From an uncultured Nitrospiraceae bacterium (GTDB taxonomy: Bacteria; Hydrogenedentota; Hydrogenedentia; Hydrogenedentales; SLHB01), in the NCBI GenBank assembly GCA_964587655.1, contig CAZPMT010000001.1, positions 17,459 to 81,458 of the forward strand: DNA of 64,000 bases, written 5' to 3'. Positions within the stretch are counted from its first letter, which is position 1; every line of letters starts with the position of its first letter. Both the position numbers and the translations under genes were made by a program. The notes beneath the pieces are model-generated. The model had not been told where the DNA came from and made no database searches. It was given only the letters and a program-made list of their open reading frames with translations. Positions 36,801-38,298 of this stretch are shown one piece after another.

Positions 36801-38298
36801 CACTTCGTCGCTGTTGGCTTGGATCACGTTGCCGACCATCAAGGCTGCATCGGTGATAGCTGACTCCGCGGCAGACTGCGTCATCCCCACTACGTTCGGA
36901 ACAACCAGACCATCCGAAACGGTCAAGTTGACCGCGCTACCACCTGTCGCCAACGATCCTGAGGTTGGACTCTGGCTTAGCACCTGCCCAATCGGCGCGT
37001 TGCTGTGTTGCGGCGTCACCGTGCCGACGACGAATCCCGCGCTCGTTATCGCGGCCTCTGCCGCGGCCTGTTGCAGGCCAACCACGTTCGGCACGGCTAG
37101 GCCGTCAGACACAGCGAGGTCGACCGCGCTCCCGCCCGCCGCCAACGACCCCGCCGTTGGACTTTGGCTCAACACCTGCCCAATCGGTGCGTCGCTGTGT
37201 TGCAGCGTTACCGTGCCTACGACGAATCCCGCACTCGTGATCCCCACTTCCGCCGCAGCTTGTTGTATGCCCACTACGTTCGGGACGACCAGACCATCCG
37301 ACACCATCAGATTGACCGCGCTCCCGTTTGCCGCCAGCGCCCCCGCCGTTGGACTCTGACTCAGCACCTGCCCGATTGGGACGCTGTTGTGTTGGGATGT
37401 TACCGTGCCTACGACGAACCCCGTGCCTGTGATCGCGCCCTCTGCCGCGGCTTGTTGCATGCCGACTACGTTCGGCACAAGCAGACCGTCTGACACCGTG
37501 AGGTCGATCGGGGTTGCGCCCGCCGCCAGCGAATCTGCTATTGGGCTCTGGCTGAGCACCTGCCCAATCGGGGCACTGCTGTGTTGGGGCGCAACTGTGC
37601 CTACGACGAATCCTGCGCCCGTGATCGCGGCCTCTGCCGTGGCTTGCTGCATACCGACTACGTTCGGGACGGCAAGCCCGTCAGACACCGTGAGGTTGAC
37701 CGCGCTGCCGCCCGCCGCGAGCGATCCTGCCGCTGGGATCTGACTGAGCACCTGCCCGATCGGGGCGTTACTGTGTTGCGGTGTCACTGTGCCTACGACG
37801 AATCCAGCACTCGTGATCGGCGCTTCCGCCACGGCCTGCTGCATGCCCACCACGTTCGGGACGACAACTAGTTCACCCTCGCCTTCGCCCTCACCTTCTC
37901 CTTCGCCTTCTCCTTCACCTTCTCCTTCGCCTTCTCCTTCACCTTCGCCTTCGCCCTCACCTTCGCCTTCACCCTCGCCTTCGCCCTCACCTTCGCCCTC
38001 GCCTTCACCTTCGCCACCTTCCGGACCTTTCCGAGACGACCAAGCTCACTGCACTGCCCGGAGCCACGCTCGCGCCCGCTGCCGGGACCTGACTGATCAC
38101 CTGGCCCGCAGGAATCGTGTCGCTGAATTGCTCCGTGACGGCGCCCACAGCAAGTCCGTCGGCCCCGATCATCGCTTGCGCGGTGCCCAGTTCTGTCCGG
38201 ACTACGTTCGGCACGGTCGCGTTCGGCGGGCATCCCAGCAGACAGAGACAGAGCGGCACTATAGCGAAAATAAGCGAAAGGCGTACTTCCCGGTTCAT
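33891..38298 (-). CDS. giant (~1470 aa) lipoprotein: signal/lipobox, ~10 tandem PASTA domains separated by (Gly-Glu)n linkers, CARDB- and BACON-like beta domains, C-terminal FGE-sulfatase / C-type-lectin-fold domain carrying a DGR variable region; apparent single-nt frameshift at a T3 run (38028-38030)
   Basis: N-terminus MNREVRLSLIFAIVPLCLCLLGC with GGAGG RBS; PASTA consensus VPNVVG..A...L...G..VG.V.......G.V.SQ.P..G......V.L.VS repeated ~10x (period ~198 bp); (GE)24 encoded at 37873-38016; FGE motifs WEWCEDDW, GFRL; removing one T at 38028-38030 fuses the 38005-38421 and 33891-37853 frames. Confidence 0.6.
33894..34010 (-). other. DGR variable region (VR) at the extreme C-terminus of the FGE/CLec domain
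   Basis: C-terminus ..RVRQGGGWSNFGYDCRSAIRYYYYPDLAYYDIGFRLSRS aligns with the canonical TvpA-type VR/TR frame GGSWNNNARNCRSANRNNNNPDNRNNNIGFRL; all substituted positions use xxC codons (TAC, GAC, TTC, ATC, CTC, AGC, GGC), the signature of adenine-directed mutagenesis of AAC. Confidence 0.6.

Follow-up and report, generated by a model that had tools for sequence, protein, structure and literature searches.

A giant PASTA and FGE-sulfatase lipoprotein gene, very probably broken by a single extra base near a Gly-Glu repeat

Contingency loci with simple sequence repeats are known from Neisseria, Haemophilus, Campylobacter and Helicobacter. Their tracts are homopolymers of roughly at least 7-8 nt or repeats with units not divisible by three (PMC5084427). 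In Neisseria, tracts of at least 8 nt were predominantly found variable, while C5 was below the search cut-off of the study, and repeats that keep the frame were described to alter the protein rather than to switch it (PMC5084427). The locus presented here shares with these systems a surface-protein gene and a break near repetitive DNA; however, it offers a run of 2-3 nt and an imperfect, codon-scrambled 6-nt unit instead. Broken frames may also be rescued on the ribosome. Ty1 shifts +1 on CUU-AGG-C, and in rpoB of Escherichia coli a suppression of about 5 % was seen for a +1-nt insertion on CCC-AGG-C, with no other signal involved (PMC7022156). Together with prfB (CUU-UGA-C), these cases resemble our locus in rare AGG and UGA codons at a place where a +1 shift rescues the frame, but a slippery P-site codon is absent here, and no specifically placed stimulator or conserved offset was recognised. 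A third class comprises the frameshifts of routine annotation, young pseudogenes or consensus indels, which present a single-base offset inside a conserved domain, two halves that match one architecture and an otherwise intact frame. The split gene is a feature of this known kind, a routine frameshifted gene or consensus indel; nothing distinctive sets it apart, and the (Gly-Glu)24 tract nearby is mechanistically uninvolved. With regard to the product, multi-PASTA proteins of the PknB and PBP2x type are similar in that seven PF03793 domains are predicted outside the membrane. Unlike these, the protein has no kinase or transpeptidase domain; it combines the PASTA array with a lipobox and an FGE-sulfatase domain in one chain, an arrangement shared by many proteins of uncultured lineages.

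The window, i.e., the whole analysed stretch of 64,000 nucleotides, carries the lipoprotein gene with all its features on the minus strand (Table 1, window coordinates). As described in the initial annotation, two ORFs are offset by one nucleotide. The N-terminal fragment extends from ATG 38298 to TGA 38007-38005 on the minus strand and has 97 codons; position 38008, previously given as its end, closes the last sense codon and not the stop. In order, it encodes the signal peptide MNREVRLSLIFAIVPLCLCLLGC with the lipobox LLGC and Cys23, PASTA-1 and the terminal residues ...GSAVSLVVSE-RSGRWRR before the TGA. The second frame is open from 38046, just past a TGA at 38049-38047, to the stop at 33893-33891, in agreement with the earlier estimate of about 38045 to 33891, and adds 1371 codons beyond the N-terminal fragment. 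Its earliest ATG, GTG or TTG is GTG 37853. The downstream piece is thus without a start codon for 152 nt past the upstream stop, and it has no signal peptide. Deletion of one A of AAA at 38030-38028 (TTT on the plus strand), proposed at the outset as removal of one T, did rejoin the frames: it gave a continuous ORF of 1468 aa with the junction ...VSLVVSEGPEGG(GE)24LVVVPNVVG.... We consider it very probable that the locus represents a single gene, coding for a ~1468-aa lipoprotein and broken by an ordinary single-base insertion, and that it is not a switch.

PASTA-1 is cut immediately before a conserved glycine, with which all other PASTA units of the protein and 1571 such motifs in the retrieved homologues end. 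Pfam analysis of the repaired protein identified PASTA (PF03793) in seven stretches spanning the break, with an E-value of 1.6e-78 and a score of 259 bits against a gathering cut-off of 23.2. Neither a terminator nor a promoter nor a start codon was detected in the stretch that separates the pieces. Together, the two frame-offset pieces correspond to a single architecture that relatives show unbroken. The earlier assignment of both ORFs to one gene holds on the evidence of the cut domain, the profile matches across the break and the continuous relatives. Further downstream, an FGE-sulfatase or SUMF1-like domain is assigned by the Pfam profile match (PF03781), which scored 159 bits against a gathering cut-off of 23.3 and covered profile positions 5-253 of 255. 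The signal peptide is that of a lipoprotein, with R3 and R6 as positive charges of the n-region, a hydrophobic h-region and, at residues 20-23, LLGC in agreement with the lipobox pattern [LVI][ASTVI][GAS]C, as judged by inspection and a regular expression only. The DNA of the PASTA array contains a period-192 tandem repeat of 5.1 copies at 36882-37863. The intact product would be ordered as lipobox signal peptide, PASTA-1, (Gly-Glu)24, six PASTA domains, central module, BACON domain, (Gly-Glu)7 and FGE-sulfatase domain, with the central module as the presumably lineage-specific part of the ~1468-aa lipoprotein. Pfam also reported a TrAA12-like match at residues 90-142, which is the Gly-Glu tract; we read it as a low-complexity match.

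Table 1. Features of the split lipoprotein gene in window coordinates.
Feature	Position	Strand	Basis or remark
Sigma-70-like promoter match, TGGACA-16-TATGTT, 9/12	38380..38407	-	consensus match only, weak
Shine-Dalgarno-like GGAGGGGAGGAAG, just 5' of ATG 38298	38301..38313	-	read from sequence
Lipoprotein signal peptide, MNREVRLSLIFAIVPLCLCLLG followed by C; lipobox LLGC, Cys23	38230..38298	-	translation; relatives begin alike
N-terminal fragment as written: signal peptide, PASTA-1, seven out-of-frame codons (RSGRWRR), TGA	38005..38298	-	
Overlap with both frames open; any +1 shift inside joins the pieces	38008..38046	-	
GGAAA, likeliest site of the extra base	38028..38032	-	all single-base deletions in the overlap listed
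Rest of the gene, second frame, uninterrupted as far as the stop at 33893-33891	33891..38027	-	
(GGN-GAR)x24, (Gly-Glu)24 linker between PASTA-1 and PASTA-2	37872..38015 (144 nt)	-	exactly 24 hexamers
PASTA domains 2-7, including five that appear in the DNA as a 192-nt tandem repeat of ~77 % identity	36708..37865	-	PF03793
Central module with PLPPPLPPLPV motif	35133..36707	-	no Pfam match; ~50 % identity to Hydrogenedentes P0121-P0123
BACON domain, residues 1056-1116 of the repaired protein	34950..35132	-	PF13004, E 3.8e-08
Second linker, (Gly-Glu)7, just before the FGE-sulfatase domain, within ...DEGAGEGEGEGEGEGEGETETIML...	34620..34661	-	
FGE-sulfatase (SUMF1-like) domain, residues 1240-1465	33903..34580	-	PF03781, E 2.1e-46

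Relatives of the protein were found for its parts. Four proteins (P0002, P0057, P0119 and P0139) start with the same type of lipobox (...GCPP...) and continue into an unbroken PASTA array. Linkers rich in glycine and glutamate stand beside PASTA domains in unbroken ORFs of P0138 (...LIVSGTAEEVPVEGEGELPVEGETEGEVEEEGEAPTEGETPAEGEIEVVVVDVL...), P0139 (GCPPSGSGDEGEGEGTNQNSTVPDVVG), P0144 and P0156. For the central and C-terminal part, P0121-P0123 come closest with ~50 % identity; members of their cluster are named Candidatus Hydrogenedentes. This SUMF1/EgtB/PvdO family of the Hydrogenedentes (the P0122 cluster, e.g., HOC70531.1 and OQC06496.1) shares at that identity the central module, the BACON and the FGE-sulfatase domain, as well as short G/E-rich linkers at the same module boundaries. 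P0122 has VAEGEGEALAADL where the split protein has the G/E linker VSIGPGVEESTDL at a module boundary, and QSQPETETILLPGD where the split protein has EGAGEGEGEGEGEGEGETETIMLPGD, at the second linker before the FGE-sulfatase domain. However, the cluster proteins, of ~960-990 aa, possess another N-terminal module and no PASTA array, and their linkers comprise a few residues (the longest is EGEGEGE in P0121), in contrast to 24 and 7 units in the split protein. Because relatives hold G/E-rich linkers, unbroken ORFs and a matching architecture, the tracts are seen as linkers and the locus as one gene.

Closer relatives were not retrieved. Exact look-ups of the 97-aa, 138-aa, 1320-aa and 1317-aa versions and of the PilB-like neighbour returned no record. 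When the full-length protein was searched, matches to the PASTA repeats predominated and no close orthologue emerged, and the N-terminal search recovered PASTA proteins at 27-63 % identity only, none of them an orthologue with the same N-terminal module. Searching genome contigs with the central module gave two distant partial matches (L001 and L002; 53-57 % identity over ~90 aa) and no orthologue. A metagenome scan with the indel-tolerant junction pattern TGGTCGTCTCGG N{2,4} GGTCCGGAAGGTGG had 0 matches, and a protein-based metagenome scan 0 confirmed relatives. A second copy of the locus was thus not found in the genome, metagenome or protein collections searched. That an intact junction is conserved is therefore deduced from less closely related proteins with 45-60 % identity over parts of their length.

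The Gly-Glu tract between PASTA-1 and PASTA-2 had been annotated as a hexanucleotide repeat of ~144 bp coding for ~24 dipeptides; it consists of exactly 24 hexamers (38015-37872). The repetition is too irregular for a perfect hexanucleotide microsatellite. The longest perfect period-6 run measures 14 nt. Perfect tandems occur in registers of 24, 30 and 36 nt, all multiples of three, and the one that extends furthest, over 56 nt, has the 24-nt register. Tandem Repeats Finder described the tract with periods of 12 and 18, 85-87 % identity and no indels. Across the 24 units, hexamer positions 1, 2, 4 and 5 are invariant, and all 18 deviations fall on positions 3 and 6. Read in the second frame, both are third codon positions; random placement of the deviations would give this distribution with a probability of ~2.6e-9. 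The confinement of the variation to third codon positions argues that the tract was translated as (GE)24 in the second frame until recently, and that it is coding and no non-coding spacer. The pattern GAR-GGN x5 had 21 overlapping matches, compared to 0 in 100 shuffles. The second tract, previously listed as (GE)8 at ~34600-34650, is present as (GE)7 at 34661-34620. Judged from sequence comparison, the Gly-Glu tracts therefore appear to be inter-domain linkers of variable length. Such linkers would be flexible, could grow or shrink in frame only and would play no role in the change of frame.

Attribution of the frameshift to a T3 homopolymer was partly correct. A deletion in this run (A3 on the coding strand) repairs the gene, but a deletion in the adjacent G2 at 38032-38031 does so equally well, and an assignment of the break to A3 alone was dismissed because the solution is not unique. 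Among all single-base deletions in the overlap, two restored a canonical PASTA end: loss of a G at 38032-38031 leads to VVSKGPEGG, loss of an A at 38030-38028 to VVSEGPEGG. In homologues, PASTA ends have at this residue K in 102 cases (74 of them KGP), D in 12 and E in 9; the other PASTA units of the same gene end in VSDG (five times) or VSIG (once). By this comparison VVSKGPEGG seems an equally good or even more typical PASTA end than VVSEGPEGG. EGPEGGEG in turn looks like a degenerate start of the Gly-Glu tract, and the acidic D is used in the gene's own repeats. The event itself would be an ordinary, unprogrammed insertion of one base into a run of 2-3 nt, inside GGAAA at 38032-38028.

Whether the extra base exists in the cell is a separate question. 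We see an even chance that it is real and represents a very recent null allele. A consensus error only, with an intact gene, is a realistic possibility that we hold more tentatively, and anything besides these two readings is unlikely. The choice between mutation and error rests on priors. Some features of the window bear on them. Comparison of ~40 other long ORFs to Pfam showed every match extending over the whole domain and no other gene in two pieces. Frame switches on the same strand that have a coding signature to either side were also scanned for, and at no other junction did the downstream frame lack a nearby start codon. The window has more than 100 homopolymers of at least 5 nt, none of which gave a detectable frameshift in the ORF checks. 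This suggests that the assembly is not prone to homopolymer errors and somewhat lowers the likelihood of an error at a 2-3-nt run; an assembly with noisy homopolymers is unlikely, which tilts the balance slightly towards a real mutation. On the other side, the break is located 13 nt from a low-complexity tract of 144 nt, and consensus problems are commoner near such tracts. Since the downstream frame is otherwise undamaged over 4.1 kb, a real insertion would have to be very recent. Pervasive indels, suspected because many same-strand ORFs overlap, were rejected: the overlapping parts belong to intact genes whose ORFs reach too far at the N-terminus.

A programmed or functionally retained +1 ribosomal frameshift, by which rare AGG codons in the 39-nt overlap would set a low level of the full-length protein, was raised in general terms in the initial annotation and is now disfavoured as very unlikely. 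In the overlap the zero frame reads UCG GAA AGG UCC GGA AGG UGG CGA AGG UGA. It presents three AGG codons and the UGA in the contexts GAA-AGG-U, GGA-AGG-U and CGA-AGG-UGA, at any of which a shift joins the frames. AGG makes up 6 % of the Arg codons (31 of 8252 codons) and thus qualifies as a slow A-site codon. The junction peptides of such shifts would be ...VVSEGPEGGEGE..., ...SERSGGGEGE... and ...RSGRWRGEGE..., and a shift at GAA-AGG-U produces exactly ...SEGPEGG.... But none of the P-site codons re-pairs well by inspection (GAA to AAA, GGA to GAA, CGA to GAA, AGG to GGU); each is mismatched at position 1, 2 or 3. The AGG codons arise because the GAAGGN repeat is read one base out of frame, and are an automatic by-product rather than an added signal. 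The Shine-Dalgarno-like GGAAGGUGG precedes CGA-AGG-UGA, yet it is not specific since the entire Gly-Glu tract is Shine-Dalgarno-like. The RNA is unstructured (z +0.97; the fold was equalled or bettered in 166 of 200 shuffles), and an Rfam search for a recoding signal had no match. Moreover, two genes of the window that look normal contain GAA-AGG in frame, and all relatives found are continuous ORFs. Low-level +1 slippage at the AGG codons may rescue a trace of the protein, but no sign of an evolved signal was seen. A milder variant, in which the base is real and unprogrammed but substantial +1 slippage at the AGG codons and the UGA keeps the gene partly active, is improbable to the same degree. 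If true, the slippage would be a natural counterpart of the suppression on CCC-AGG-C in rpoB of E. coli, and the lipoprotein would be down-tuned, not dead.

Slipped-strand phase variation, with the T3/A3 run and/or the Gly-Glu repeat switching the lipoprotein on and off at high frequency, had been put forward as a classic switch and was not sustained; we rate it as highly improbable. Large surface proteins belong to a class that is often phase-variable, the repeat lies 13 nt from the break, and the downstream frame is as intact as it would be in a reversible OFF state. The run, however, is of 3 nt (or 2 nt), and it is one of 870 A3/T3 runs in a window that has 2178 three-base runs of any base and a longest homopolymer of 7 nt. 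Neither A3 at 38030-38028 nor G2 at 38032-38031 is a hypermutable tract. The Gly-Glu repeat lies inside the coding region and alters neither frame nor promoter spacing: as its 6-nt unit and its perfect registers of 24, 30 and 36 nt are multiples of three, slippage stays in frame and can neither cause nor reverse the shift. With a perfect period-6 run of 14 nt at most, the codon-scrambled tract looks selected for the peptide, not for DNA instability. Transcriptional slippage needs runs of ~7-9 or more A or T and was rejected on this established knowledge of run length.

Two genuine genes, a single-PASTA lipoprotein of 97 aa and a separate protein of 1320 aa from GTG 37853, are the least credible reading, although both were listed as ORFs and short PASTA lipoproteins exist (e.g., P0139 with 177 aa, though on a contig of 933 nt): PASTA-1 would lack its conserved terminal glycine and bear an RSGRWRR tail rich in rare codons, GTG 37853 is inside the conserved VPNVVG start of PASTA-2, without signal peptide and with the nearest Shine-Dalgarno-like sequence ~19 nt away, the 144 nt between the pieces are coding in the second frame according to their third-position-only variation, and neither terminator nor promoter separates them.

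For the single gene broken by an ordinary insertion, the consequences depend on the nature of the extra base. If the base is real, the cell would produce a lipoprotein precursor of 97 residues, ~75 after cleavage, with one truncated PASTA domain. The remaining 1371 residues would be made little or not at all, or made without export, because no start codon follows the upstream stop within 152 nt and the second piece lacks a signal peptide; a product begun at GTG 37853 would lack the export signal. The gene would thus be off. If the base is an error, the organism has an ordinary though very large modular surface lipoprotein. For annotation, this calls for merging both ORFs into one gene marked as frameshifted, or for a correction should reads reveal an error. 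The locus should not be catalogued as phase-variable, as a short run beside an in-frame, codon-scrambled amino-acid repeat is no evidence of a contingency switch. If the insertion is real, an uncultured Hydrogenedentes-like lineage would have lost a giant surface lipoprotein of the PASTA/FGE-sulfatase type only very recently, which would be of modest ecological interest as a case of surface-protein turnover.

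The array of PASTA domains in the lipoprotein gene is repetitive also on the DNA level: domains 2-6 (36864-37863) form a tandem repeat with a period of 192 nt, 5.1 copies and an identity of approximately 77 %, and a second period of 384 was detected. This repeat provides a substrate for expansion or contraction of the array in frame, by entire PASTA units. The central module (35133-36707, minus strand), located between the PASTA array and the BACON domain, had no Pfam match and contains the motif PLPPPLPPLPV. Only three protein clusters, P0121-P0123, the nearest relatives of the central and C-terminal part of the lipoprotein, were found with this module, at an identity of about 50 %; their named members are affiliated to Candidatus Hydrogenedentes.

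The features surrounding the lipoprotein gene and those of the other regions are compiled in the table. No assignable ORF was present in the gap towards the PilB-like gene. A FinP-like Rfam match in this gap (38483-38553) was sub-threshold with an E-value of 0.94 and probably arose by chance.

Features in the neighbourhood of the lipoprotein gene and in further regions of the window
Feature	Position	Strand	Remarks
URO-D (uroporphyrinogen-decarboxylase) family paralogues	2782-5017		two, tandem, adjoining
TIR domain and TPR repeats protein	9991-13578		1195 aa
Predicted tRNA-Gly(TCC)	13604-13696		ARAGORN; 93 nt; directly after TIR-domain gene
PIN-domain gene	13971-14432	-	near TIR/TPR gene
'23S rRNA intervening sequence protein' family gene	33189-33569	-	four-helix-bundle (PF05635); immediately downstream of lipoprotein gene
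Intergenic gap	38299-39266		~970 nt; flanked by the lipoprotein and PilB-like genes, which are divergently transcribed
Terminator-like hairpin	38524-38501	-	within the gap
Sigma-70-like match	39198-39227		strong, 11/12; for plus-strand PilB-like gene; within the gap
PilB/GspE-like ATPase gene	39267-41258	+	third-position GC 0.57
dnaN	41934-43040		all three beta-clamp domains; third-position GC 0.41
GT4 glycosyltransferase gene	43045-44304		third-position GC 0.42

The third-position GC content of the PilB/GspE-like, dnaN and GT4 genes is far below that of the other genes checked, which ranged from 0.72 to 0.82. The genes at 39267-44304 may represent a compositionally distinct island, or the difference in codon usage may be linked to expression. 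A dnaA gene was not noticed beside dnaN.

The TIR/TPR and PIN genes could constitute a neighbourhood of the defence or toxin type. The tRNA-Gly predicted between them is unusually long, and Rfam revealed no tRNA at the gathering threshold in the whole window; either a false-positive call or a degenerate tRNA-like element is the probable explanation. In both URO-D paralogues, the match to the Pfam model is confined to its C-terminal half, thus the two proteins may be methyltransferases of the MtaA/CmuA type instead of HemE.
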